A DNA stretch of 64,000 nt from positions 1 to 64,000 of IMG/VR virus record IMGVR_UViG_3300024261_000014. One strand, given 5' to 3'. A program made the translations under genes and the position numbers. Source of the stretch: a virus. Below, piece after piece: positions 26,874 to 55,732 of the stretch (positions are counted from its first letter, which is position 1; every line of letters begins with the position of its first letter). Under the pieces are notes generated by a model that saw only the letters and a list, made by a program, of their open reading frames with translations, made no database searches and was not told the DNA's origin.

Positions 26874-27695
26874 TTAATATCGCCATGCTAATCTCCTACC
26901 ATCTTCATTATCTATCTTTACCTTTGGGTAATACTTTGGATGTAAATATCTGAACACTTCTTGGTCATCTGCCAATTTCATATGTTCAGGTGCTTCTGGT
27001 GGATGTTGTGTGAATTGTTTATCGTATTTTAATTTCAACGCTTCTTCAAGTAATTCAATTAAGAACTCCGTTTTTCCAATCACAACTCCACTATTCAAAT
27101 ATAATCCTTTTTGGTTATCCATATGTGATAATGCTTCTCTTCCCCACTCTCCGTGAAAACCACCTTTGTTTCCTTTACAAAATGTAGTACTCATAAATAA
27201 TGCATCACAATCATAACCATAGAATATATCTATAATTTTTTGTGGGTCATCTTGAAAAATAACATCTCCCGCATCACACCACATTGATAATTCTGTTTGT
27301 TCATTATTTTTTAAATATTCTAAAATCCATTCTTCTTTCATTAAGTGAGAATACATACCATACTTCTCAATCATCTTCTCGTCCACTATATGGTGGCCAC
27401 ACACGGGTTTCGATACAACTACGGGTGTTCCTATGCCTAAATGTTCTAAATTTCTTTCAAAAATAGTTACCTTTCTACCATCTTCCAATTCGTATAATTG
27501 ATTGTAACGATGTAGTTTAGATTCCGCAGTTCCTGTCTCATCATCAATATAATTGTGGGCAGTTATAAAAGTTATATTATCAGGTTTGGTATAAGAATCC
27601 TTTTGTACATCATTCTCTATCATCCAGTCCATAATCTCTCTTGCGTGTTCACCCGCGTGAACGATTGGTTGTTTTATCTCTGAATGTGGTCTCAT
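26874..27695 (-). CDS. PLOD/LH3-like glycosyltransferase domain protein
   Basis: DAGDVIF, YLNSGVVIG, DDQEVF resemble the GT-domain motifs of lysyl hydroxylase LH3. Confidence 0.6.
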   Translation of the reverse strand: MRPHSEIKQPIVHAGEHAREIMDWMIENDVQKDSYTKPDNITFITAHNYIDDETGTAESKLHRYNQLYELEDGRKVTIFERNLEHLGIGTPVVVSKPVCGHHIVDEKMIEKYGMYSHLMKEEWILEYLKNNEQTELSMWCDAGDVIFQDDPQKIIDIFYGYDCDALFMSTTFCKGNKGGFHGEWGREALSHMDNQKGLYLNSGVVIGKTEFLIELLEEALKLKYDKQFTQHPPEAPEHMKLADDQEVFRYLHPKYYPKVKIDNEDGRRLAWRY

Positions 27696-38243: not shown

Positions 38244-38822
38244 TTAAATAATTTTATCGATGATACCATACTCTAAACATTGTTTGGCATCTAAGTATGT
38301 ATCGTTTCTATTCATTCTCTTCCAAAACTTTACATCCTTGTTAGTTACTTCCGCGAGTAACTGATTAATATCTTTTGCTAATACTTTTAAATGGTCAACA
38401 CCTCTCATAACATCAGTAGATTTACCAACCTCTACTGCAGAACCCTCATGTACCATCACAGTCGAGTGGTTTGTCATTGTTCGAGTTCCTGTACCACAAG
38501 CTAATAATACTGCTGCAGCACTCATACAAGTTCCAACACAATGTGTATTAACCTTAACATCCATGTTTTGAATATAATCAACCAACCCCAACATAGCATA
38601 AACATCTCCACCATAAGAAGCGATATTAAGATTTATCGCATCTAAGTGTGGATTTACCCTCTGTAGGTAATCCAATTTAACTATTGTACTATATAAACTA
38701 TCAATGTCAAATTCAAAATTCATGTATGTAGTGTTCGTATATGAATTTACACCCCACTCCATCTCTGACATTGCGAATTGTTCTTCTTTTTTATAACCTT
38801 GTTCTGCCATTACTTGCTCCAT
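38244..38822 (-). CDS. clpP: ClpP-like protease
   Basis: IASYGGDV, CMSAAAVLL (Ser), VMVHE (His), NDTYLDAKQCLEYGIID (Asp). Confidence 0.85.
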   Translation of the reverse strand: MEQVMAEQGYKKEEQFAMSEMEWGVNSYTNTTYMNFEFDIDSLYSTIVKLDYLQRVNPHLDAINLNIASYGGDVYAMLGLVDYIQNMDVKVNTHCVGTCMSAAAVLLACGTGTRTMTNHSTVMVHEGSAVEVGKSTDVMRGVDHLKVLAKDINQLLAEVTNKDVKFWKRMNRNDTYLDAKQCLEYGIIDKII

Positions 38823-39244
38823 ATGTTTTTAAGTTCTTTGTCTGATACACCATATTTCATTATGATTGATGTAACCTGTTCTTTTGTTAATATTTCCAAA
38901 TGTTGTTCAACCTCTCGTGTACTACATTCAAAGTAATCCACTAAATGTTCCATAGCCCATTTTTCAACTTTTGATTTCTTCTTTGATTTTGTATATCTAA
39001 GAAATGTTCTACCTCTTGGTATTATGTCAACATAAAACTGATACAAATTCTTTGGTTTTAATTCCCAATACTTTTGTATTTCATTTACAACCTCTAACCA
39101 TTCAGATTTCATACTAAGAAATCTATGTACCATATAGTTACTCCAAGTTTTTTTATCAGCATCTGATAAGGAGTCCCAATACATAGTATTTTGAACATTA
39201 GTAATTTGTTTTATGTGGTCGAATAACGATTTTGTTTTTGCCAT
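38810..39244 (-). CDS. Clamp loader small subunit (T4 gp62-like)
   Basis: LFDHIK, NYMVHRFLSM, QFY..IIP...FL.Y.K pattern. Confidence 0.65.
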   Translation of the reverse strand: MAKTKSLFDHIKQITNVQNTMYWDSLSDADKKTWSNYMVHRFLSMKSEWLEVVNEIQKYWELKPKNLYQFYVDIIPRGRTFLRYTKSKKKSKVEKWAMEHLVDYFECSTREVEQHLEILTKEQVTSIIMKYGVSDKELKNIWSK

Positions 39245-39294: not shown

Positions 39295-39891
39295 TTATTT
39301 AAAAGTGTTTCCTGCAACCCAACAAACACTTGTGTACCTTACACCTTTAGTGACTGGTGTAACTTGGTGTCCTGCAAATGATGGAAATATAATCAATCTA
39401 CCTGGTTCTGGTTCAATTATAGTATCATCAAATAATATAAAATCTCCACCCTCATATTCATTATTTAAAAATAATACTGCAGTCATTTTAACTATACTAA
39501 AATCATCTGATGGATGAAAATCTGCGTGTGGTGTGTACCAATCTCCAACTTCATATTTATGACCAGTATATTCATTTCTATGAATCCCACCGATATCAAA
39601 TTTATAATAAAGTTGATTTGCTAGTTTAAATGCGTTCCAATATTTTGTTAATATTTCCTCATCCGTATAGAGTGCAACATTTAAGTTACAAACTGCAGGG
39701 TCTTTTTTATACTTAGGATTAGAATCTGCACCATAGTAAACATCCTTTTGTTTCTTCACACAATCTTTATCAATTCGCGTTATAAACTCATCACACTCTT
39801 CTTGAGTAATAAAGTTTTTTCTATCCACCCACCATCTAAAATTTGGATTAGGTGTAAAGTTCTGTTCTATTGGTTTATACAAAGGTATCAC
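39295..39891 (-). CDS. 2OG-Fe(II) oxygenase (prolyl hydroxylase-like)
   Basis: HAD...LN..YEGG...HQV.PV..G.R. Confidence 0.88.
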   Translation of the reverse strand: MIPLYKPIEQNFTPNPNFRWWVDRKNFITQEECDEFITRIDKDCVKKQKDVYYGADSNPKYKKDPAVCNLNVALYTDEEILTKYWNAFKLANQLYYKFDIGGIHRNEYTGHKYEVGDWYTPHADFHPSDDFSIVKMTAVLFLNNEYEGGDFILFDDTIIEPEPGRLIIFPSFAGHQVTPVTKGVRYTSVCWVAGNTFK

Positions 39892-40483
39892 CTATTATAA
39901 ATTCTTGAATACAATGTCGTATTCCCTTTGTAACTGGAGTTACTCTATGAAAAAATATTGGTGAGAATACAATTAAAGTTCCCTTTTCTTGTGGAATTGT
40001 ATAATACTCCATAGAATGTGGGTCTTGTATAGCAAATTGTGTTTTACCACCCTCATATTCACTTGGGTCTGTTAATTGTACAATACACGCTAACTTTCTT
40101 AGAGAACTTTGGCCTGCATTAAAATCTGAATGCCAAGTATAAAAATCTTCAGTCTCTCCATTATACTGAATCATTTTTATATTGTTTTCTACTTCTTGAA
40201 TATTAAAGTTCCAAGATAACTGATTCATTACTTTTGCAGATAAAAATAATTTCTGTTGTATGTCTGAATAATCACCCTTTGCATAATCTCTCATATCTTT
40301 ATGTAAATACCATTCTTTAACACTTCTAAATTCTAAATTATGGTCTGAACCCATATGTGGTTCTATACAACCTGTTTCACCCTTTTCCGTACTTTTAACC
40401 CTTTCAATAAACTCATCACATTCTTCTGGTGTAAAGAAGTTTGGTTTTGTCATATACCATTGAAAGTTTTCATTCTTTTTCAT
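39875..40483 (-). CDS. 2OG-Fe(II) oxygenase
   Basis: WHSD...RKL...YEGG...HRVTPV..G.R. Confidence 0.88.
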   Translation of the reverse strand: MKKNENFQWYMTKPNFFTPEECDEFIERVKSTEKGETGCIEPHMGSDHNLEFRSVKEWYLHKDMRDYAKGDYSDIQQKLFLSAKVMNQLSWNFNIQEVENNIKMIQYNGETEDFYTWHSDFNAGQSSLRKLACIVQLTDPSEYEGGKTQFAIQDPHSMEYYTIPQEKGTLIVFSPIFFHRVTPVTKGIRHCIQEFIIGDTFV

Positions 40484-41088
40484 CTTAGTGGTTCTCCTAT
40501 GTAGGTTTCTCTCATTATAAATCTTTCTCCACTTTTAAGTGGTGTAACCATATGGTTCGTAAACGATGGGAACATAAATAAATATCCTTGTTTATATGGA
40601 CATTTAAAAAAATCTTCTTTTTCATTACTAAATGCAAAATGTAAATCACCACCATCAAAATCTTTTGGGTCGGATATTTGAATCAAGCAAGCTATTTTGT
40701 TTAATGATAGTATTCCAGCATCTGTACCCGAATGCCAATTGAAATGGTCTCCCTTTTGATATTCAATAGTTCTAAAATCCCCTTGATTTCGTTCAATATC
40801 GAATTTCCAAACCCTATCATTTGTAATCTTTACTATAGTATTTAGTTTATCTACCAACCAACTATAATCATTCTTTATATTACTATTTAATTCTGGTAAT
40901 AAATATATTTCATTACAATCACGATGGTGAGATAGATTAACTTTTGTAGGCTCTTCTTCTTGTGGATTATATGTTCCACCTTGAACCCAACTATCTTCAC
41001 CCTTAACTTTTTTTACTAAATCATTACATTGTTCTACACTAAGAAATGATAAATGTATAAACCATTTAAAATCATTGTTTTCTTTCAC
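40480..41088 (-). CDS. 2OG-Fe(II) oxygenase with HxG motif (halogenase-like)
   Basis: WHSGTD where paralogs have HxD; distal H and R retained. Confidence 0.8.
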   Translation of the reverse strand: MKENNDFKWFIHLSFLSVEQCNDLVKKVKGEDSWVQGGTYNPQEEEPTKVNLSHHRDCNEIYLLPELNSNIKNDYSWLVDKLNTIVKITNDRVWKFDIERNQGDFRTIEYQKGDHFNWHSGTDAGILSLNKIACLIQISDPKDFDGGDLHFAFSNEKEDFFKCPYKQGYLFMFPSFTNHMVTPLKSGERFIMRETYIGEPLR

Positions 41089-41675
41089 CTAAAAGTATCT
41101 CCGTGTAACCAACCAACGATGGAATATCTTGAGCCAGAAAGTAATGGTGTAATTCTATGTATTACTAATGGATTAAAAATAATTACACTCCCCTTTTTTC
41201 TTGTACCCTTAACAAAACTATCACTATCTTTGGTTGTTAATGCAAACTCTAAATCTCCACCATCATAATCATCACCATCTGATAATTGAACTATAACACT
41301 TAATTTTCTCGTTGATTCATCACCTTTACCAAAATCTGGATGCCATCCATACCCATCACCCTTTACATATTTTAATAGTTTAAAATTCTCGTAAGAATCC
41401 CAATCAATATCGTAATTGAAATGTAGTTTATTAGCAACCTTAGTGAGATTTAATATTTTATCAGTAATTTTACTACTTTCTATTTGGAACTCTGTTGCTT
41501 TTCTGTAATCTCTAACCTCACTACCACTCAAACCAACAAGTTCAGCTCTACTACCATTGGTATTGATTGTGTGTTGAGATTCACCAAAACTTTTATTTTT
41601 AATAAAATCTATTTCTGAATCACTTAGAAAGTTTTCCTTTTCAATATAATACTTAAAACCATTATTTTTTTTCAT
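41085..41675 (-). CDS. 2OG-Fe(II) oxygenase
   Basis: WHPD...RKLS...YDGGDL...HRITP..SGSR. Confidence 0.88.
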   Translation of the reverse strand: MKKNNGFKYYIEKENFLSDSEIDFIKNKSFGESQHTINTNGSRAELVGLSGSEVRDYRKATEFQIESSKITDKILNLTKVANKLHFNYDIDWDSYENFKLLKYVKGDGYGWHPDFGKGDESTRKLSVIVQLSDGDDYDGGDLEFALTTKDSDSFVKGTRKKGSVIIFNPLVIHRITPLLSGSRYSIVGWLHGDTFR

Positions 41676-41691
41676 ACTTACTCTTTAAGGT

Positions 41692-41742
41692 CCTTTTGGT
41701 GGTAAGTTATGCACCACCACCACCTTTTGGTGGTAAGTTATG
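41692..41742. repeat. 20 nt direct repeat encoding an alternative C-terminal tail for the Hint protein
   Basis: CCTTTTGGTGGTAAGTTATG at 41692-41711 and 41723-41742. Confidence 0.9.
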
Positions 41743-43254
41743 AACTAATATATCACTTGAAAAATAAGTATCAATATCCTCTACATCTAATGAATAGAAA
41801 GTTTCATCGGTAGTTACTTCGACTGTTGATGTTACTTCAATAAGGTTACCATCCTTATCCATTAGTTCATCACCAACTTCAATTTCAAATGCTCTAAGGA
41901 ATTTATACTCATTTGCTCGTTTTACAAATATCATCCCCATCCAACCAAACTTATAAGTATCATTTATTATATAATGTTCTGGTTGTACATTAGAAGATAC
42001 CTCAAGTACAACTGAACCACTCGAAACACTATTGGTTAAATCTGTTGATGAATATGCTGCAAAATCGTGGTCACTTAAACTCATTCCAACTGGTTGATAT
42101 GATTTAACCACATCACCAACTTCTACATCTTGTATTTGTTTAGTACTACCATCATACATACGAATTAAACTTCCACTCGGTGTTGTAGTACCTCTATTTG
42201 CAACCAGTTTCCACTTATACCAATCATTATCTATAGATGAACTTACACCTGTAGGTGGATTTATTTGTATGTATTGTGGACTATAATAAGAACACAATAC
42301 TTCTGTATGTTGTGGTGTGAATAATATATATGCTCTACCAGTCCCTAAGTATTTATTTCCATTACCATCTAAACTACCAGAAGATGGAATAAATTTTTCT
42401 GGATAAGTAGATATACCAGTACTCGTCTCGATATCATACCAATATGTCATACTGGTGTGAACGCGCTCTTTATAATCCGAATTTGATTCCCAAGTTTGTT
42501 CAACTCCATCCGCATCTGTATAGGTAGATGAGTATATATTTCTTTGTTCTGCATTAGTTATATATGAGTTAAAACTTATATTGAATGGACTAACTAATAA
42601 TGAACCATCTTCAGTTTTAGATTTTAAAACAAAATCTGGCCAAGTTCCTACTCCACGATTAGCTGCAATTGATGATGAAGTAAAACCATCTATAAATGTC
42701 TCACCAACATTTGCACTCTGAAGTATAGTTCTAAATTTAGTTTTATCCATAGAACCAGTAGCCATTGTATATAATGTATCATCTGCTCCGTAACCATTTG
42801 GTGTATCAACGAAAAGATGAAATTTACTTGAAGATGCCTCTACCCGAGAATTAACATATGGTGCTGAACTATCATAAACAAAAGAAGAACTTATGTTATG
42901 ATTAGCGAAACTTGCGGATATACTTGAAAGTTTAGTTTGTCTTGGATTTTGCATATCTGCCCAAGTAGAACCATAAATATTTACACTACTATAACTTTGT
43001 GTAACAGCATATTGTGCAATTCTATCAAAGAAATCCGAACCTTGTACTGATAAAGGTATCTGTACACTTGGATTTGTATTAAACTCAAATATTTTTGTAT
43101 CATTACTACCACTCTCAATAGTAAAATCATATGCACCAATAAATGCTGAATAACTATGATTTGGCCAATCTCCTGCACTACCTGTTATGTAATCACTAAT
43201 TTCTTTTACTTTAGCGTTTACATCTGATTTTTGTGTATAATTTACTATACTCAT
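41707..43254 (-). CDS. Putative circularly permuted ATP-grasp domain + Hint (BIL-like) domain + tail LPPKGGGGA
   Basis: YDF...KIFEFNTN, PDFVLK, PEKFI; Hint TTPSGSLIRMYDGSTKQIQDVEVGD...FYSLDVEDIDTYFSSDILVHN (41737-42186). Confidence 0.7.
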   Translation of the reverse strand: MSIVNYTQKSDVNAKVKEISDYITGSAGDWPNHSYSAFIGAYDFTIESGSNDTKIFEFNTNPSVQIPLSVQGSDFFDRIAQYAVTQSYSSVNIYGSTWADMQNPRQTKLSSISASFANHNISSSFVYDSSAPYVNSRVEASSSKFHLFVDTPNGYGADDTLYTMATGSMDKTKFRTILQSANVGETFIDGFTSSSIAANRGVGTWPDFVLKSKTEDGSLLVSPFNISFNSYITNAEQRNIYSSTYTDADGVEQTWESNSDYKERVHTSMTYWYDIETSTGISTYPEKFIPSSGSLDGNGNKYLGTGRAYILFTPQHTEVLCSYYSPQYIQINPPTGVSSSIDNDWYKWKLVANRGTTTPSGSLIRMYDGSTKQIQDVEVGDVVKSYQPVGMSLSDHDFAAYSSTDLTNSVSSGSVVLEVSSNVQPEHYIINDTYKFGWMGMIFVKRANEYKFLRAFEIEVGDELMDKDGNLIEVTSTVEVTTDETFYSLDVEDIDTYFSSDILVHNLPPKGGGGA

Positions 43255-43292
43255 TAACTTCTCCTAATGATACTTTTATTCATATATAAATA

Positions 43293-43730
43293 TCATATTT
43301 TTACATTATAGTTACTATTTAGGAACATCTTCTGTGCTGATTTATTCCAACTATCTGATTGTGCCCACCAAGAATCCCAATCTTGGCAATATCTATGTAG
43401 TGAATTAACAATCTCACCACCTATACCTTTATTTCTATATTTAGGATTTACATAGATGTTACATATTTCCTTTGTTTCTGTATTTAACCAACCCCAACCT
43501 TGTATCATTTGTTGTGGATTAAATACTACAAACTTCCAACCATTGTCTAATCTGATTTTTGCTTTAGGTAAATCCCACATATCATCCCACTTAATTATTG
43601 AATTAAAGTAGTCTATCTCATATTGTAAATTATATAAGGTACACTCATCATAATCAAATGATGGACATAAATCAGATACTTCCGCATCTTCCCTATTGAT
43701 GTTAAATAACATCTTCAACACCTTTACCAT
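43293..43730 (-). CDS. GNAT acetyltransferase
   Basis: IYVNPKYRNKGIG acetyl-CoA motif, N.SAQKMF; probable start MLFN. Confidence 0.82.
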   Translation of the reverse strand: MVKVLKMLFNINREDAEVSDLCPSFDYDECTLYNLQYEIDYFNSIIKWDDMWDLPKAKIRLDNGWKFVVFNPQQMIQGWGWLNTETKEICNIYVNPKYRNKGIGGEIVNSLHRYCQDWDSWWAQSDSWNKSAQKMFLNSNYNVKI

Positions 43731-43854
43731 CAGTTACACAACCATCTCTAACAACTTCGGTATCTTTTATTGTCTGTACTATCTCATCACATTTTTCGTG
43801 TGATAGGAATGTTGGTATTTGAATTGAGAATTTAAATGCTTTATTTTCCCCCAT
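43702..43854 (-). pseudogene. Truncated N-terminus of another 2OG-Fe(II) oxygenase paralog
   Basis: Manual translation MGENKAFKFSIQIPTFLSHEKCDEIVQTIKDTE... resembles MKENNDFKWFIHLSFLSVEQCNDLV; stops after 50 aa. Confidence 0.7.
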
Positions 43855-45388
43855 GTCCTGGCGCATTATGAACTAATATATCTGATGAAAAGTATGTATC
43901 AATATCTTCTACATTGAGTGAATAAAAAGTTTCAGTAAGATACTTCTCTTCCACTGCAGTGACATCAATCCAATTACCATCTTTATCAAATAATTTATCA
44001 TCCACTTCTACCTCATAACCTTTTCTAAACTGAAAGTATCCCAAACCACCCCTATCCATATAGACTCCTGCTAATTGTGGAATCTTATAAGTATCATTTA
44101 TCAAATAGTATAAATTTACTTCTTCTGAATGTACATCCACAACAACTGAACCACTTGCAAAACTATCACTTACATCTGTAGAACTCCAACTTAAATAATT
44201 CATATCACTATCTGGCATTCCCAATGAACCAGAACCACCTGGTTGATACGATTTAACTACATCACCAACCTCTACATTTTGTACCAATTTAGTACTATTA
44301 TCATACATACGAATTGTTGCACCATGTGGTGTAGATGGGCCTTGGTAGGGTTTTAATGTCCACTCGTACCAATCATTATTCAGAGATGAACTTACACCTG
44401 TTGGGGCGTTTAATAATGAAAACTTACTATTATAGTAAGTACCAAGTGTAATTACTTTTTCGGGTGTTAATAATTGTACACTTCTACCATTACCTATGAA
44501 TTTTCTTGCACCATCATCACTACCTGATGAAATAATATAATCCTCTACATAATTACCCGTTCCATCTTCCACATCTATACCATAAAAGTGTTGCATACTC
44601 TCTGTGAATGGTGTACCCACACTCCAATTTACTTCATTTCCATCAGCATCTGTAAAAACACTTCCGGTTAGCTCTCTTACTTCTGCACTACTGATGTATG
44701 AATTAAATGAAATCGAACCATCAGCTGTAACCATAAATGATGCATGTTTAGCTAAATCTTTTAAAACATAATCTGGATAATCACTAACCCCTTTATTTGC
44801 TGCTATTGAAGCTGAATTAAATGCCCCAATTAAAGAATCACCACCAATTGGTGATGCCCCAAGTATAGTTCTAAAACTTGTTTTAGTAAATGAACCACTT
44901 GATATCTGATACAAAGTATCATCCGTGTTACTTGGTGAAGCTACGAATACATGGAAACTCCCCGAATTTGAAGCAGTTCCTCTTTTTGCTAAGTATTGTG
45001 CTTGGTCTGTATAATTAAATGATGAACTAATATTATATTGAGCAAAACTTGCAGATATTGTAGGTTGTGTTGCAGTAGGTGGATTATATGTTCCAAATTG
45101 AAAACTACCATATACTTGTACATCTGAATAACTTTGTGTTGAGGCATATTGTGCAATATCATCATATATGTTTCCATATAGACTACTCATCTGAGTACTA
45201 TTGATTGCAGTATTCATCTCAAATACCTTTACATCATCACTACCACTTTCAATTGTAAAATCATAACACGCAAGTATTCCTGCGTAAGATGAATCAGGCC
45301 AACCACCAGCACTACCTGTAATGTAATTAGATAGTGATTCTAACTTCGTTTCTACATCTGATTTCTGACTAAATATTGTTATTGACAT
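43841..45388 (-). CDS. Paralog: putative ATP-grasp + Hint + tail APGHGGK
   Basis: YDF...KVFEMNT, PDYVLK, YVEDYI; Hint STPHGATIRMYD...SSDILVHN (43865-44335). Confidence 0.7.
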   Translation of the reverse strand: MSITIFSQKSDVETKLESLSNYITGSAGGWPDSSYAGILACYDFTIESGSDDVKVFEMNTAINSTQMSSLYGNIYDDIAQYASTQSYSDVQVYGSFQFGTYNPPTATQPTISASFAQYNISSSFNYTDQAQYLAKRGTASNSGSFHVFVASPSNTDDTLYQISSGSFTKTSFRTILGASPIGGDSLIGAFNSASIAANKGVSDYPDYVLKDLAKHASFMVTADGSISFNSYISSAEVRELTGSVFTDADGNEVNWSVGTPFTESMQHFYGIDVEDGTGNYVEDYIISSGSDDGARKFIGNGRSVQLLTPEKVITLGTYYNSKFSLLNAPTGVSSSLNNDWYEWTLKPYQGPSTPHGATIRMYDNSTKLVQNVEVGDVVKSYQPGGSGSLGMPDSDMNYLSWSSTDVSDSFASGSVVVDVHSEEVNLYYLINDTYKIPQLAGVYMDRGGLGYFQFRKGYEVEVDDKLFDKDGNWIDVTAVEEKYLTETFYSLNVEDIDTYFSSDILVHNAPGHGGK

Positions 45389-45406
45389 AAGGTTCTCCTA
45401 TATATA

Positions 45407-46111
45407 TTATAAATATCTCTCATATAAATTTTTGGTAAATAATTCGTTAGATAAAACTCCAGCGTGGTTGCCACCAACTGCCTCATCTTCCCAACACCCA
45501 AGATATTCATCTATAACATTTGTTAGTAATCTAATTCCTTTATTTTCCAAATAATTCTCAATCAGTAATTGATTTCTGTATAGATTGTCATTATCATATT
45601 CATCGTTCTGTAAATTTACAAGTGAATCGTGAGCTAACAACCCATCATCAGTTTTCCAATAATCCCATTTACCATCAGGCTTAAAAGAGCATTTCCTACC
45701 ATCTAATGTGGTGTACTCTCTCCTATGTGGATACGTATATAAAACAACAATTAAATCTGGTTTTAAAATTTCGGTATATGATAGAACTGCTCTACTAATT
45801 GTATCATTAGATATTCCTTGAATACCACAATTAATATGTGAGTGTTGAATTTCGTTTGCTAATAAATGTGGCCATGTTTCCTCATTTCCTACACCTACAC
45901 CCAATGTATGACTGCATCCAAAAGTAAGTAACTTAGATTTTGATGAAAAATAAGTTTCTAAATCATCTCCCCTAAATCCAAGTTCATTAAATGTATATCC
46001 ACCAACTACTCTACCAGATTTATCTCCACCGACAGTTTTATGTGTTTGATTCTTTCTTGATTTTAAATCATCAAATATATCAAACTCTTTATGAGTCCAG
46101 TGCGGGTTCAA
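45407..46111 (-). CDS. SGNH/GDSL-like hydrolase
   Basis: FNELGFRG, FGCSHTLGVG, G.SND, NHAG. Confidence 0.7.
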   Translation of the reverse strand: MNPHWTHKEFDIFDDLKSRKNQTHKTVGGDKSGRVVGGYTFNELGFRGDDLETYFSSKSKLLTFGCSHTLGVGVGNEETWPHLLANEIQHSHINCGIQGISNDTISRAVLSYTEILKPDLIVVLYTYPHRREYTTLDGRKCSFKPDGKWDYWKTDDGLLAHDSLVNLQNDEYDNDNLYRNQLLIENYLENKGIRLLTNVIDEYLGCWEDEAVGGNHAGVLSNELFTKNLYERYL

Positions 46112-46346
46112 GACCTGTTCCCTTTAACATCTCGGTTGGTACTTGTCCACAATTACCACAACTAAATACTTCAATTGGAACTAATCCTTCTTGACCATTC
46201 GGTGACATTATTGCAGATATCCTTTTTATAATCGTTGATGTTATAAACAAATAATTACCACACGCCTGACAATTTAGTGTATCTGCTTTACTTAAATCTA
46301 ATTTTTGTTGTGGTTTATTTATCGGTTTTTGTGCTTTCATATTCAT
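46089..46346 (-). CDS. Zn-ribbon hypothetical protein
   Basis: CQACG...CGNCG. Confidence 0.65.
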   Translation of the reverse strand: MNMKAQKPINKPQQKLDLSKADTLNCQACGNYLFITSTIIKRISAIMSPNGQEGLVPIEVFSCGNCGQVPTEMLKGTGLEPALDS

Positions 46347-47266
46347 TTTACTTTTCCTATTATCTCAACAAACATTGCCATAGCATTTATTTCTTTATCC
46401 ACTACTACTGCATCACTTTGTTGATATTGACTTAATACTAAAATACATTCTGCGACATGTCCTCTACCCCAATCATCGACTGTATCAAACAACAACCTAA
46501 ACATATCACTAAAGTCTGTAACTTTGGAATCTGCTAATAATTGTCGAATGTTCTTGAATGCATTCTTCTTATCTTGAGTTTTCAAGATTTCTAAAACTTC
46601 TAACTTGTAATCGTTTTGTGTACTCATCGCTTCATCTATAACGAGTTTCTCTTTTACTACCTGTCTCTGAGCAGCATTGATTACTCTTCTGATATCGGGA
46701 TAACCACCATTCACTATCGTTACGATATCATCTACTTTTGCATCTACCGATTCTTTCTGTAAGATTTTCGACATATGCATCGCGACTTGTTTTCTATCGG
46801 GTGGTATAATCTGAAAGGATTGACATCTTGATTGGATTGGGTCAATTATTCTTTCAACATAATTACAAGTTAGGATAAACCTACAATGTTTTGAAAATGT
46901 TTCCATTAGATTTCTTAATGCTGCTTGTGCATTTGGTGTAATGTAATCACACTCATCTAATATTATAATCTTCATCTCTGAAAATCCAAGTGTTGATGCA
47001 AAATTCTTTACTTTATCACGAACTACATCTACACTATTCTCATCAGATGCATTAATATATAAATAATCACAATCTATATTATTAACGAGTAATTTAGCGA
47101 GAGTGGTTTTACCTGTACCTGCACGTCCATAAAGCAAAAGGTGTGGTAAATCGCCACTCTCCAAATACACTTTGACTTTACTTTTGAGATGTTCATTCCC
47201 AATGTAAGTGTCAAGTGATTGCGGCCGATACTTTTCTACCCATAAGGTATTTTTAATTTCTTCCAT
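46343..47266 (-). CDS. Clamp loader AAA+ subunit (T4 gp44/RFC-like)
   Basis: WVEKYRP, GRAGTGKTT, ILDECD, QSRC. Confidence 0.95.
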   Translation of the reverse strand: MEEIKNTLWVEKYRPQSLDTYIGNEHLKSKVKVYLESGDLPHLLLYGRAGTGKTTLAKLLVNNIDCDYLYINASDENSVDVVRDKVKNFASTLGFSEMKIIILDECDYITPNAQAALRNLMETFSKHCRFILTCNYVERIIDPIQSRCQSFQIIPPDRKQVAMHMSKILQKESVDAKVDDIVTIVNGGYPDIRRVINAAQRQVVKEKLVIDEAMSTQNDYKLEVLEILKTQDKKNAFKNIRQLLADSKVTDFSDMFRLLFDTVDDWGRGHVAECILVLSQYQQSDAVVVDKEINAMAMFVEIIGKVK

Positions 47267-47267
47267 A

Positions 47268-47828
47268 CTATTCCTTTATTGCATCTTCTTCTAAAAATAT
47301 CTGAACACTCCATCGAATACCAGATGTAATTTCATTTACCCAATGTAAATGTTTATCTGCTATCCAAACATACCCAGCATCTTGTTTCATTGTTCTAACA
47401 CCATCGTTAGTTTCAAATTGTAATTCTCCACCCTCATATTCACCATACTCTTTATCAGATAATTGAATACCAATCGTAAAACATCTCTTCCTTAGAATTT
47501 CACCATCAGTACCTGTCATAACATCATCTATATGTGGTTTAAAATAACAACCTTTACTATAGTGACATATTATCATTGAGTAACCAAGATTATCAATGTT
47601 TAAATCTAAAGTATTTGTCCAATCTTTAATCCTATCATAAACCCAAGATATATCATAAGGTGAATTACCCCAAGGCAAAGCATCTGATAACATTTTACTA
47701 CCAACTTTTTCATATTCGTTGTGGTAGACATCAACTACTCTAACTTTTAATCTAGCATATGATTTTATTTTTTCACATTCTTCTTTACTAAATAATCTTT
47801 TTTCTATTAAAGTTTTTTCCATATCCAA
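47268..47828 (-). CDS. 2OG-Fe(II) oxygenase
   Basis: PHID...YEGGEL...HWV..ITSG.R. Confidence 0.82.
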   Translation of the reverse strand: MDMEKTLIEKRLFSKEECEKIKSYARLKVRVVDVYHNEYEKVGSKMLSDALPWGNSPYDISWVYDRIKDWTNTLDLNIDNLGYSMIICHYSKGCYFKPHIDDVMTGTDGEILRKRCFTIGIQLSDKEYGEYEGGELQFETNDGVRTMKQDAGYVWIADKHLHWVNEITSGIRWSVQIFLEEDAIKE

Positions 47829-52993: not shown

Positions 52994-55732
52994 TTAAAAA
53001 TCAATAGTTAATCCTATGTTTGCATATCTTGGTGTTCCAAGAAATACTTCAGAATTATGAGCTAAGTGAAGTTTATCACCATACCCATTGTATTGACTAT
53101 TATCAACTGCATCTTGTACATAAACTTCATCAAGTGCGTTAAAGATGTGACCTGTAATAGTCAAATCTAAACCAGCAATACTTGGAAGTTTGTAAGATGC
53201 GTGTAAATCAAGTTTTGAGTAACCAGGAGCTTCCCAAACTTGTGTTCTATCTGCAACTCCATCAGAATCCACTTCTCTTGAACCAGGACTCCAATCTGCA
53301 TAGTTCTTATCATATACATTGTAAAGTGCTTGTACTCTCAATCCCTTAATAGGTTTAAGTGTTACACCCAATATATAAGATGATTGTGGTTGGTCACCAA
53401 CAAATAACCCATCAAGTGCATATGCATATTCAGTAGTTTGATAACCAATTACTTGGTTGTCATCGTTATATTGAGATTCTTGGTAAGTACCATTGGCATC
53501 ACCATCGAACTTCCAACCACCGAAAGAAGCAATCAAATCAAGTTCTACCATTTCGTGTGGTAATACTTTTACTTCAACTTCTGTACCTCTATGTTTCTGA
53601 TTAACACCTCTTAAAAAGATTACATCAGTATCACCTGAATCTCCTTGACCCGTGTCAACATTACGAGTAAGGTTTCTATCTTTCCAATCTGTGTTATAAG
53701 CAGATACTTTCACGGCAACTTTATCGTTTGCATATCCAACACCAACTTCTGTTGATAAGAATTTCTCATTGTCTGGGTCGGATGCGACCGTACCAGAATA
53801 ATCAATTACATTATCAAGAATTGGTGCTTTTTCCACATATCCTGAATTTATAAAAGTAGTAACACCATCTAACCATTCATAGTGTACTCCACCTTTAACT
53901 TGATATGATGAAATAGCATCAGCAGTAATTTTCTCGTTTTCTACTGAAAAATGGTCTTGATATGAATATTTAATAGATGATATTCCACCCATTCCATATA
54001 CATTTAGATTATCTTTCGTGTAGTTACCTTGAACAAATCCACCTAACCAATCGACAGTAGTAGTGTTATGATAAGCAATAATATCACCTAACCCAACAAC
54101 TTTTCCATCTGGTGCATTGTCATCAGCAAAATCAACATAGTAATCACCACCTAATAAATCACGAACTTCACGAGCGTGTTCTATTTCAGCAGTTCTCCAA
54201 TCGATACCAGTTTGAAATTCTAAATCTTCATTAACTTTATAATTTAATTTAGAAATTAATCCATATGTATCTTGTCTGTTGATTGAGTTTCTAAGAATAC
54301 CTGTAGAACGATGGTCTGTTTCAGAATAATCAGCATCGATATTAGTACGATTCTGTTCAATCTCTCCATTCCAATCCCACATCCAAGGCGAACTTGAATA
54401 CCAAGCATTATCTGCTACGGCTGGTGTTCTCATTACACTACCATAAGTTCCTGTTCCACCACCTGAACCACCACTCCAATAAAGAACTGATGATAATTTA
54501 GTTTTATCATTTATCTCTAAAAAGTGATTTAGATTCACTAATGGTTTATGGAAGAAATTCTCCCTTTCATTAAGAAAGTTTGAATTTTTTCTTTTGGTTG
54601 TGTTTGCTCCATACATATACCAATATTGTTCTCCAGTATAGTCGGAACTAACTGGTGCCCAATTTTGACTAAAGAATCTACCAGCTTCAGTTTCGAATTT
54701 GTTACCCTCTGCAAAAGCATCAGTATCATATCCGTCAATATCACTTGCTAACTCTTGTGAGTAAGTAGCAATATTCTGTTTGTATAGATTTTGTCCGTGT
54801 CTTTGTGGTGCACCGATTGCGTACAACTCGAATCGTTGTTTATCGGATACTGCATAAGAACTTCCAAAATAATAAGCCCAAGCATCTGTCCAGTTTCCAT
54901 CAATGATACCATCACCAGTCTTACGAACAATTGTTCCAGCCAGTGCAAGTTTATCACCAATCAAACCTGAATTGTAGTTAATAGTAGTTTTAATAAAACC
55001 ACCATCTCCTGCTTCTTGTTTGAACTTACCACCCTTTTCGTATTTAGCAGGGTCTGTAATGATATTCATAGTTCCACCAATAGAAGGTGTGGCAAGATTT
55101 ACAGCTGATAGTCCTCTTTGTAACTGAATTGATTGAGCAGCATCTGCAACCCCATCCCAATTACTCCAATAAACCCATCCGTTCTCCATATCATTTTGGG
55201 GAACACCATTAATCATCACCGCAACATTTCTTTGGTTAAACCCTCGTACATTAATACGAGCATCACCAGCACCACCACCTTGTTGAGTTGCATATACACT
55301 TGGTGTAGTATTCAAAGCCATTGGAACATCTTGACTACCAAGTCTAAGTTCCATTTCTTCTTTACTAACCATTGAATAAGCAACAGGTGTTGTTGCAACA
55401 GCTCTTGAAGCCAAAACTTCAACATCTGTTAGAGTAAGAGCATCAATTGCCAAAGCAATATTCACTTTTACTTCACTATCACCCACAACAACCTCTTTAG
55501 ATTGAGATGAGTATCCTATGAATGAAGCAGTAATAGTATAAGTTCCAGCTTCTACTGAAATTGTAGTAAGACCTGTCTCGTTAGTAACACCACCGAGTTC
55601 AGTTCCCTCTACCACTACATTTGCTCCAACCAAAGGGTTATATTCAACATCTTTAACATCAACAACAATGGATTGAGCGAACAATCCTGTCATCAATACG
55701 AAAGATGCTATTAGTTTACGATATATATTCAT
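52994..55732 (-). CDS. TonB-dependent outer-membrane receptor with N-terminal carboxypeptidase-regulatory-like domain
   Basis: Signal peptide; PLVGANVVV..GT..G..T; plug INVRGF...VMINGVP...GGTMNIIT; C-terminal Phe; GAGGAG RBS. Confidence 0.92.
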   Translation of the reverse strand: MNIYRKLIASFVLMTGLFAQSIVVDVKDVEYNPLVGANVVVEGTELGGVTNETGLTTISVEAGTYTITASFIGYSSQSKEVVVGDSEVKVNIALAIDALTLTDVEVLASRAVATTPVAYSMVSKEEMELRLGSQDVPMALNTTPSVYATQQGGGAGDARINVRGFNQRNVAVMINGVPQNDMENGWVYWSNWDGVADAAQSIQLQRGLSAVNLATPSIGGTMNIITDPAKYEKGGKFKQEAGDGGFIKTTINYNSGLIGDKLALAGTIVRKTGDGIIDGNWTDAWAYYFGSSYAVSDKQRFELYAIGAPQRHGQNLYKQNIATYSQELASDIDGYDTDAFAEGNKFETEAGRFFSQNWAPVSSDYTGEQYWYMYGANTTKRKNSNFLNERENFFHKPLVNLNHFLEINDKTKLSSVLYWSGGSGGGTGTYGSVMRTPAVADNAWYSSSPWMWDWNGEIEQNRTNIDADYSETDHRSTGILRNSINRQDTYGLISKLNYKVNEDLEFQTGIDWRTAEIEHAREVRDLLGGDYYVDFADDNAPDGKVVGLGDIIAYHNTTTVDWLGGFVQGNYTKDNLNVYGMGGISSIKYSYQDHFSVENEKITADAISSYQVKGGVHYEWLDGVTTFINSGYVEKAPILDNVIDYSGTVASDPDNEKFLSTEVGVGYANDKVAVKVSAYNTDWKDRNLTRNVDTGQGDSGDTDVIFLRGVNQKHRGTEVEVKVLPHEMVELDLIASFGGWKFDGDANGTYQESQYNDDNQVIGYQTTEYAYALDGLFVGDQPQSSYILGVTLKPIKGLRVQALYNVYDKNYADWSPGSREVDSDGVADRTQVWEAPGYSKLDLHASYKLPSIAGLDLTITGHIFNALDEVYVQDAVDNSQYNGYGDKLHLAHNSEVFLGTPRYANIGLTIDF

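Follow-up and report, generated by a model that had tools for sequence, protein, structure and literature searches.

A Hint-domain protein family heading a variable island of putative tailoring enzymes in uncultured marine T4-like phages

Introduction

Tandem arrays of dioxygenases dependent on 2-oxoglutarate (2OG) and Fe(II) have been known in marine T4-like phages since at least 2010, with no substrate or purpose assigned to them. The available part of the account by Iyer et al. (2010; PMC2938197) describes such an array in the cyanophage Synechococcus phage Syn9 and proposes peptide modification or metabolite synthesis as its role. It also reports bacterial hydroxylase neighbourhoods with sulfotransferases, acetyltransferases and TonB-type receptors, some of them with tail-collar or collagen-like substrate proteins, and radical S-adenosylmethionine (SAM) enzymes associated elsewhere. 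We analyzed a 64,000-nucleotide stretch of viral DNA (positions 1 to 64,000 of IMG/VR record IMGVR_UViG_3300024261_000014; hereafter, the window), in which two 515-residue proteins with a C-terminal Hint domain, Hint proteins A and B, are encoded beside an array of this kind. As in Syn9, several distinct 2OG dioxygenases stand in tandem in a marine T4-like phage, and sulfotransferases, acetyltransferases and radical SAM enzymes of the sort noted by Iyer et al. occur here or in related loci. Unlike the Syn9 type, for which the available part of that paper mentions no Hint or ligase-like head, the arrays studied here have a constant partner, an enzyme-like protein with Hint chemistry, predicted to be self-cleaving, and a conserved tail. 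An earlier reading of the sequence (the original prediction) had proposed that each of the two proteins frees its own short tail for ligation by an ATP-grasp domain and tailoring by the neighbouring enzymes.

Parts of this protein resemble described systems. A-type bacterial intein-like (BIL) domains are found in variable, non-conserved proteins, keep a terminal His-Asn and can cleave at the C-terminus through Asn (PMC7765530, available part). The Hint domain adjoining the N-terminal domain of A and B (Hint1) shares with them blocks F and G and a terminal His-Asn followed by a non-nucleophile; it differs in lacking Cys1 and the block B His, in being fused to a conserved enzyme-like domain and in being followed, in relatives, by up to three intact Hints. 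Hedgehog-type and pretoxin-HINT autoprocessing proteins and BIL polyproteins are comparable in that a Hint frees or activates its neighbour and several Hints may occur per polypeptide, but most members of the present family carry no cargo after the Hints, no sterol-recognition region and no toxin, and their spacers are 2-6 residues rather than ubiquitin-like domains. On the enzyme side, RimK-type ATP-grasp ligases have a similar arrangement, with N-x-[ST]-x-x-G-G ahead of an acidic residue and E-x-N on adjacent strands, and a helix after them. The Mg-type site is N-terminal in the Hint protein and C-terminal in RimK, so homology would require a circular permutation, and the ATP-binding Lys, the Gly loop and the hinge of RimK are not reliably alignable. 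Glutathionylspermidine synthase and YgiC (PF03738) have the motif order that the original prediction had in mind, but show no profile-profile similarity to the N-terminal domain.

Results

Hint proteins A and B are diverged members of one family

Hint protein A (positions 41707-43254) and Hint protein B (43841-45388), both on the minus strand, are open reading frames (ORFs) of 515 codons, as originally predicted, and align end to end with 49% identity (E = 7e-161). Both belong to a conserved and hitherto undescribed family, encountered only in uncultured marine T4-like phages, of which they represent two diverged versions. Among 8000 scored candidates, 331 proteins matched A at E <= 0.001, all of them from marine or other environmental sources, and the family is abundant in seawater. 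IMG/VR held 117 confirmed family loci, of which 80 were kept, and a tblastn search with A gave no match in 50,697 phage records. The statement that no such system had been described agrees with a literature search, which found no paper on the family; the available part of PMC7824862 contains nothing on it, and the supplementary data of PMC2938197 might list further phage neighbourhoods. The only PHROG match of A was a 'virion structural protein' family, covering the Hint part only; B matched nothing in PHROGs, and neither protein matched anything in NCBIfam. The phage itself represents a deep T4-like lineage, its DNA polymerase being 43% identical to the best cultured match, and the source record is an 83.9-kb fragment with an estimated completeness of 41%.

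The family architecture consists of an N-terminal domain (N-domain) of about 300-355 residues, Hint1 ending in VHN, and a short tail. In A, the N-domain comprises residues 1-356 (42187-43254), Hint1 residues 357-506 (41737-42186) and the tail LPPKGGGGA (41710-41736); in B, the corresponding parts are residues 1-351 (44336-45388), residues 352-508 (43865-44335) and APGHGGK (43844-43864). These nine- and seven-residue ends after VHN are those originally predicted. Family members fall into length classes of about 451-515, 600, 753 and 892 residues. In the longer relatives, the tail is followed, at a spacing of 2-6 residues, by one to three canonical Cys1 Hints, the last of which often lacks HN; TxxHP was found in all 158 parsed units of these extra Hints, the parsing script having missed some Hint starts. 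The VHN pattern was matched in 176 of 181 unique family sequences; one of the five misses was VHK, one was in fact VHN, and the other three were not inspected.

Nearly all single-Hint tails (n = 76) consisted of [L/I]-P-x-[K/R] with 0-2 further residues, LPPK (15), LPKK (6) and IPKR (6) being the commonest. The multi-Hint forms (n = 100) carry the same linker ahead of Cys1 (IPPKCF, 34; LPPKCC, 17; IPPRKC, 17), so that the single-Hint proteins end exactly where the next Hint would start. A conserved tail after HN, a point on which homologs had been suggested as a check, therefore exists, but it is only four to five residues long. The lysyl and prolyl hydroxylase motifs PKG and APG, which had been taken as meaningful in the window's tails, did not hold up in this comparison: both tails are singletons among the 76 and were made by insertions or deletions (indels). 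A sortase-type LPxTG reading of LPPKG was rejected because the tail has no Thr and its G is not conserved.

Two divergent branches depart from this pattern. The proteins P0125 and P0127 end in VHS, and this branch is still found beside a sulfotransferase and a hydroxylase-like gene. In the other branch the polypeptide runs on past HN, by about 110 residues in P0126 and about 190 residues in the protein of locus L117, and the extension is rich in Gly, Ser, Thr, Tyr and Trp. A search of the L117 extension against PDB gave nothing significant.

The Hint gene heads a variable island between gp44 and gp62

Reading along the minus strand, the island and its flanks in the window consist of a gp44-like gene, an 85-residue protein gene, a 234-residue protein gene, Hint B, a GNAT gene, Hint A, four oxygenases and a gp62-like gene. 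The upstream flank is the large subunit of the clamp loader (gp44-like, 46343-47266), which is 40-46% identical to cyanophage clamp loaders, and the downstream flank is the small subunit (gp62-like, 38810-39244; phrog_225, E = 6.4e-18). The 85-residue protein with two CxxC pairs (46089-46346) had no match in Pfam, PHROG or NCBIfam; it marks the upstream border by synteny, lying beside gp44 in nearly all related loci. Across loci at the gp44-gp62 site, the island always had gp44 and the 85-residue protein gene on one side and gp62 on the other. In a cultured cyanophage, only two small genes lie between gp44 and gp62.

Of the 75 loci in which 700 nt or more of sequence lay downstream, 73 had an oxygenase gene directly after the Hint gene, which bears out the co-occurrence that the original prediction had suggested looking for. 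The run of oxygenases, which are of the P4H/PKHD type, comprised one to five genes, most often three; in the two exceptional loci, an unrecognised ORF of 206 or 223 residues took the place directly after the Hint gene. The remaining content varied, and included SGNH-like, GNAT, SPASM radical SAM (344-386 residues) and B12-binding radical SAM (about 650-750 residues) genes, as well as an AMP-binding fragment, QueC-like genes, sulfotransferases, SAM methyltransferases, a Zn-dehydrogenase and Asp/Arg-hydroxylase-like genes. These observations show an exchangeable island of tailoring-enzyme genes between gp44 and gp62, with the Hint-protein gene as its constant head.

The divergent branches have their own settings. 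Loci L117 and L118 lack the flanking replication genes altogether; alongside the Hint gene stand three dioxygenases, a methyltransferase and a sulfotransferase, together with a TibC-like glycosyltransferase of family 9 (GT9), GT7-lectin proteins, radical SAM enzymes and a cytidylyltransferase. In the VHS-ending branch (L084, L087 and L088), a sulfotransferase and an Asp/Arg-hydroxylase-like gene lie directly downstream.

Some neighbouring genes were unusual in themselves. The GT9 protein of L117 (1090-2262) has a weak match to the N-terminal domain of TibC, a family of protein heptosyltransferases. Two of the GT7 (galactosyltransferase-like) proteins in L117 12867-18458 were checked against Pfam, and their Laminin_G_3 lectin matches were significant in one and weak in the other. 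In L003 (6984-8018) and L019 (8060-9217), a SPASM match (residues about 6-79) stands ahead of the radical SAM core (about 117-314), which is an unusual order.

Hint1 retains half of the Hint machinery

Hint1 matched the Pfam models PT-HINT (E = 8e-4) and Intein_splicing (E = 1e-4 to 2e-3) below their cut-offs. The best PDB match was the bacterial intein-like domain 2LWY (E = 9.6e-4), aligned via blocks F and G up to the terminal HN, with weak matches to 6TMM and 6Y75 (E about 0.02). Block B TxxH is missing, as had been noted, and H505 is the only invariant His. The first residue of the domain, originally given as T or S, is one of these in 156 of 184 sequences (T, 80; S, 76); the remaining 28 have I, L, F, M, V or D there. 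Hint1 of the family lacks a conserved Cys, and the Hint parts of A and B contain none; a Class 3 intein mechanism, which uses a block F Cys, was rejected on these grounds.

Without Cys1 and the block B His, only half of the machinery remains. Since block B is absent, VHN is kept and the domain is of the BIL type, C-terminal cleavage only, as proposed in the original prediction, is a fair reading of the sequence. That Hint1 cleaves between HN and LPxK is a reasonable inference by analogy, because A-type BIL domains keep His-Asn and can cleave C-terminally.

The N-domain has a putative ATP-grasp-like metal site

Invariance in the N-domain was judged in two alignments, of 56 and 29 sequences, and the invariant residues were T24, S26, G28, W30, P31, D43, E57, N59, H146, D159, P206, D207, K211, E286 and S292-G-S294. 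A hypervariable insert occupies residues about 225-285 of the domain. All N-domain motifs named in the original prediction were present, with D43, E57, N59, T60, P206, D207, K211 and E286 invariant or nearly so. An invariant N-x-T-G-S-x-G-G stretch, together with D43 and E57-x-N59, resembles the Mg2+/substrate site of ATP-grasp ligases. The putative metal ligands D43, E57 and N59 are in place at the motif level, where they align to the sites of RimK and biotin carboxylase.

Profile searches pointed to the same region. Against PDB, the best match was the E-x-N stretch at the Mg site of a biotin carboxylase domain (residues 31-70, E = 0.48). CPSase_L_D2 was the commonest weak Pfam match, found for 3 of 29 N-domains with a best E of 0.024, below the cut-off. 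Alignment by hhalign to a phage RimK family of 113 phage-type sequences (the RimK of this phage and 112 relatives) placed residues 39-85 on the C-terminal D...E-x-N strands and the last helix (P = 0.0041), and 85 more diverse RimK sequences gave P = 0.0029; the match spans about 45 columns only. When the RimK profile was used in tandem, the score was 33.4, against 11.8 for the reversed control and a maximum of 25.7 in 80 shuffles, and the alignment paired N-Y-I-T-G-S-A-G-G with A-N-I-T-R-G-G of RimK. The full-length permuted alignment itself was discounted, since the tandem copy raised the score only from 28.9 to 33.4 and the diverse RimK set gave no rise (30.4 versus 30.0). The tandem extension was also placed differently with the diverse set and is not counted as evidence. 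K211 and E286-K-F-I are invariant, and two hhalign runs put them on different RimK segments with near-zero confidence.

Feature matches in the ESM Atlas, which serve as leads only, listed ATP-grasp clusters at 0.87-0.91, also for residues 86-354 alone, and included GshA and GSP_synth clusters (GSP_synth, 0.87). The N-domain was matched by no Pfam, PHROG or NCBIfam model. An HMMER search over 1.84 billion representative proteins gave 58 matches (13 of at least 445 residues and 45 shorter pieces), with no bridge to a named family; the six matches that were inspected were all family members. From the Mg-site match at residues about 31-85, we consider the N-domain probably ligase-like, by a modest balance; this is as far as the originally proposed ATP-grasp assignment stands.

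A genuine RimK-type ATP-grasp ligase is encoded by the same phage outside the window (G000:C1:66390-66956, minus strand; locus L083 1480-2391; PF08443, E = 3.7e-52). Among 2914 candidates, 2430 relatives of this protein were found at E <= 1e-5, many from marine samples.

Oxygenases, GNAT and SGNH-like protein of the island

The predicted run of four tandem 2OG-Fe(II) oxygenases and a GNAT was borne out by curated models, all four oxygenases passing the PF13640 cut-off. Oxygenases 1 (39295-39891), 2 (39875-40483), 3 (40480-41088) and 4 (41085-41675; E = 1.3e-13), all on the minus strand, carry the metal motifs H-A-D, H-S-D, H-S-G and H-P-D, respectively. In an alignment that included a fifth oxygenase of the window (47268-47828), the distal His and Arg were invariant in all five, and HxD was present in this fifth protein and in three of the island four. 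In oxygenase 3, which passed PF13640 with 28.0 bits against a cut-off of 27, H-S-G replaces HxD and an Asp follows two residues further on; HSG was also present in 7 of 18 unique homologs of oxygenase 3 in related loci. This pattern may indicate a halogenase-like site, which is a possible reading of the motif. The oxygenases matched PF13640 and PKHD-type models, and the TET/JBP and AlkB families were not among their matches in Pfam and NCBIfam.

The GNAT acetyltransferase (43293-43730, minus strand; 145 residues as called) matched PF00583 with E = 2.7e-8 and 34.5 bits (cut-off, 20.7); its NCBIfam match, RimI-like, was far below the cut-off. For the 234-residue protein (45407-46111, minus strand), called SGNH originally, the evidence was weaker. 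A profile of 16 relatives matched a GDSL-family lipolytic protein in PDB (4RSH, E = 0.0017) and, second, an SGNH acetyl-xylan esterase (E = 0.76); an NCBIfam SGNH/GDSL model was matched at E = 7.9e-4, far below its cut-off. There was no Pfam match, and no curated cut-off was reached. Conserved residues stand in the expected order, G65-C66-S67, N94 and G99 being invariant and H216 nearly so, the SGNH blocks being Ser in block I, Gly and Asn in blocks II and III and His in block V; block I here reads G-C-S, not G-D-S. Given these weak PDB and NCBIfam matches, SGNH-like identity is plausible, though weakly shown.

The C-terminus of the island enzymes showed a recurrent pattern. An F[KRNV] end was found in 189 of 198 unique oxygenases and 17 of 23 SGNH-like proteins, versus 0 of 29 GNATs, 3 of 154 other island ORFs and 10 of 491 ORFs outside the island. 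In the window it occurs in 3 of 86 ORFs, all of them island oxygenases (oxygenase 1, NTFK; 2, DTFV; 4, DTFR); oxygenase 3 (EPLR) and the SGNH-like protein (ERYL) end without it. As a docking tag, this end is suggestive and no more.

The gene pair and both tails arose by recent rearrangement

Comparison with the closest relatives of each gene explained the unusual features of the window. Protein A is 94% identical to the protein of locus L001, whose gene ends in LPPKGP. Read side by side with L001, the window gene carries an insertion of 31 nt, in which 20 nt of the HN-LPPKG codons recur and which gives the GGGGA end; the two copies of the 20-nt repeat, 31 nt apart, re-encode HN-LPPKG at 41692-41742 (minus strand). 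Protein B is about 90% identical to that of L020, which has the tail LPRK followed by a stop codon that the oxygenase start overlaps. A 4-nt deletion relative to L020 removes this stop, turning LPRK-stop into APGHGGK-stop.

The oxygenase that follows the Hint gene in L020 persists in the window as a remnant of its first 49 codons (43708-43854, minus strand), carried on a 54-residue ORF (43702-43866); the remnant overlaps the last part of B and extends into the GNAT start as annotated. The remnant is identical to the N-terminus of the L020 oxygenase at 44 of 49 residues (90%; E = 2e-31), and nothing else, such as a separate short conserved ORF, was found in the 110-nt gap between B and the GNAT gene. 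Colinearity of the window DNA with L020 ends at a junction (about 43710-43715) that marks the start of the GNAT from the L001-type cassette. The L001 GNAT shares sequence with the window GNAT only from an internal Met on, and the true start is probably this Met at residue 7, near 43712. Because the oxygenase homology ends where the L001-type GNAT starts, the window holds a head of SGNH-like protein, Hint B and oxygenase joined to a separate cassette of GNAT, Hint A and four oxygenases, by recombination at a short shared stretch that cut the first oxygenase to 49 codons.

The gene pair and both odd tails are therefore recent accidents of this genome; the equal length of 515 residues and the PKG and APG tails reflect young rearrangements, not design. 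The two genes had originally been called duplicated, and they are indeed paralogous, but they did not arise by local tandem duplication: they are two diverged alleles joined by recombination. No second Hint gene turned up in any of the 77 related loci listed.

The junction is crossed, with no sequence change, by contigs from two other DNA runs (X2 record 22, 43543-46400; X8 record 29, 43378-46400), and X8 record 28 covers 41723-43401. Both runs were flagged as possible sources of the window DNA. The join does not stem from faulty assembly in a single data set. The stretch 43000-44600 was found in 20 runs of 17 studies, namely 14 DNA runs (11 studies) and 6 RNA libraries (6 studies). Contigs from the RNA libraries cover all of B and most of A, which is compatible with transcription and is no proof of it. 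In RNA library run X15, contigs cover 43780-45398, which takes in B together with 10 nt ahead of its start codon and 61 nt beyond its stop, and 42328-43264, which takes in the 5' two-thirds of A and likewise reaches 10 nt upstream of the start codon. A reading of these ends as transcript starts was rejected, as contigs cannot show starts and DNA carry-over is possible.

Discussion

We read the Hint protein as a self-processing, probably ligase-like hub that would head a peptide- or protein-tailoring island, the gene pair and tails of the window being recent accidents, and we hold this reading as a whole with even confidence. The protein would be an amide ligase dependent on ATP and would use Hint chemistry for its own maturation, through Asn cyclisation between HN and LPxK; it and the dioxygenases would share one substrate, a peptide or protein, for which the conserved C-terminal tail of the Hint protein itself would be the simplest candidate. 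In the longer relatives, the additional Cys1 Hints would be removable add-ons, a cut at their own N-terminus leaving the same LPxK end. The F-[K/R/N/V] end may dock the dioxygenases and the SGNH-like enzymes to this hub. If both the ligase and the cleavage activities are real, the family would represent a new viral route to modified peptides or protein tagging, and a natural case of stacked Hint domains.

Several observations weigh against this reading. No curated ATP-grasp model reached its cut-off for the full proteins or the N-domains, and past residue about 85 the RimK alignments are unreliable and differ between two runs. The permuted ATP-grasp of the glutathionylspermidine-synthase type, as first proposed for the N-domain, found no support in profile comparison: hhalign gave P = 0.46 against 15 members of PF03738, where insensitivity at the sequence level is possible, and P = 0.42 against E. 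coli YgiC alone. The N-domains contain 24% Ser+Thr and 15-17% charged residues (11.7% and 26%, respectively, in the remaining ORFs of the window with 100 residues or more), a composition closer to that of a structural protein, or of one that is heavily modified, than to that of a cytoplasmic enzyme. The dN/dS values to the nearest relatives are high (0.58 and 0.42), the changes clustering in the hypervariable insert, at residues about 236-279. All but two of the examined loci lie at the same syntenic site, and the counts of linkage are therefore largely non-independent; likewise, the oxygenases are paralogs, so that their common F[KRNV] end stands for roughly a single event, to which the SGNH-like family adds a second. 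No tail follows VHS in the branch that ends in this motif. The L117 extension has Peptidase_S74, a tail-fibre chaperone, as its best Pfam match (E = 0.038), below threshold; it contains what looks like the motif of that family.

The composition of the N-domain and the L117 extension would suit a protein that is not an enzyme at all, but a Ser/Thr-rich phage substrate, perhaps of the virion or its fibres, decorated by the hydroxylases, sulfotransferases, acetyltransferases and glycosyltransferases encoded nearby; its Hint would be a module for maturation by self-cleavage, comparable to the chaperones at the C-terminus of tail fibres. Such a role would fit the low charge and the many invariant Ser residues, the 'virion structural protein' family as sole PHROG match (of the Hint part), the TibC-like GT9 and GT7-lectin genes beside the L117 branch and a 20-kb glycan-type island close by in the window. 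It also has a precedent in the bacterial hydroxylase, sulfotransferase and acetyltransferase clusters next to tail-collar or collagen-like substrates (PMC2938197, available part). Yet the invariant D43, E57, N59, H146, D159, K171, R175, K211 and E286, sparse in a protein of low charge, form an active-site-like pattern, and the match of the N-terminal stretch to the Mg site of ATP-grasp enzymes scored higher than shuffled controls. The gene lies in the replication module rather than among structural genes, and no structural-protein family matched the N-domain in the Pfam, PHROG and HMMER searches. On balance we consider a decorated structural protein unlikely; if this were the correct account, the family would offer a handle on hydroxylation, sulfation and glycosylation of phage proteins. 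Still less does the evidence favour the absence of any shared pathway, with the gp44-gp62 gap as an accessory-gene hot spot and adjacency by descent or, in a variant, with oxygenases that modify DNA or nucleotides. The common syntenic site of most examined loci, the very variable island content and the occurrence, inside or close to some islands, of QueC-like genes, a Vut_1 transporter and methylase-like genes could be understood in this way, but the adjacency of Hint and oxygenase genes survives island reshuffling in 73 of 75 loci and recurs in L117 and L118 without the flanking replication genes. Moreover, two unrelated families of island enzymes have in common a C-terminal end that is rare elsewhere, and the oxygenases are of the PF13640/PKHD type rather than TET/JBP or AlkB; this account, in either form, appears highly improbable.

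The model of the original prediction holds that the protein frees its own tail, with a new N-terminal amine, by Asn cyclisation, that the ATP-grasp domain ligates this tail and that the neighbours hydroxylate, acetylate or otherwise tailor it, so that enzyme and precursor would be one single-turnover polypeptide, in a tagging system or one that makes modified ribosomal peptides. Among its elements, the type of Hint, the linkage to oxygenases and the tailoring enzymes nearby stood, and the argument from the PKG and APG tails fell. For a pathway to peptides that are made by the ribosome and modified after translation, co-located tailoring enzymes are present, with oxygenases, GNAT and SGNH-like protein here and radical SAM enzymes, sulfotransferases, methyltransferases and a Zn-dehydrogenase in relatives; as precursor peptide, the only candidate is the four- to five-residue tail [LI]P.[KR]. 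HN is kept in 176 of 181 sequences with block B lost, Pro and Lys in the conserved tail are classic hydroxylase targets, and the tail of multi-Hint forms, lying between the HN end and a Cys1 Hint, could be activated at its carboxyl group as a thioester. SPASM and B12 radical SAM enzymes, sulfotransferases and methyltransferases in related islands would also suit peptide maturation. On the other hand, both tails of the window are recent indel products, PKG and APG being singletons among 76, the tail-less VHS-ending branch keeps its island setting, and the other branch has an extension of about 190 residues, not a short peptide. The arrangement would be costly, with one 500-residue protein spent per tetrapeptide, and its cleavage step is itself a prediction. 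We regard this model as doubtful.

A bolder form would make the family a Hint-driven peptide factory, in which a peptide of four to five residues, [L/I]-P-x-[K/R], is released, ligated or cyclised, and tailored by docked enzymes. Asn cyclisation by the half-disabled Hint would free the tail at its amino end; where a Cys1 Hint comes next, as in multi-Hint relatives, that Hint would convert the carboxyl end of the tail to a thioester, and in single-Hint forms the ATP-grasp-like domain would activate this carboxyl instead. The tagged dioxygenases and other enzymes on the same protein would then hydroxylate, acetylate, sulfate or methylate the peptide. This proposal is improbable as it stands; if true, it would define a new class of ribosomal natural product from ocean phages and supply the dioxygenase arrays with a substrate.

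Other features of the window

A glycan-type island of about 20 kb lies near the Hint island, at about 15391-35671 of the window on the minus strand. It contains GT2 genes, an NAD-dependent epimerase/dehydratase, a DegT aminotransferase, a cytidylyltransferase, a MptE/Maf-like gene, a PIG-L deacetylase, DUF6071 and two GT1 genes. A match to a PLOD-type glycosyltransferase at 26874-27695 was weak (E = 2.4e-5) and below the cut-off. A role in protein glycosylation, tied to the hydroxylases, is conceivable for this island. A 912-residue ORF (52994-55732, minus strand) that lies between the ribonucleotide reductase and DNA polymerase genes has as its sole PHROG match a family of unknown function.

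The motif TATTTATA, reported originally ahead of both 515-residue genes, was found there (43285-43292 and 45408-45415). As an enriched motif it was rejected: the window has 16 copies versus 16.3 expected by chance, so the number of copies carries no meaning. Its placement is non-random. Nine of the 14 copies on the coding strand begin 13-62 nt upstream of a start codon, and 7 copies are entirely intergenic, despite the window being 93.5% coding. The 14 minus-strand sites include 4613, 25455, 35925, 39262, 43285 and 45408. From this positioning, TATTTATA may be a promoter element of the phage.

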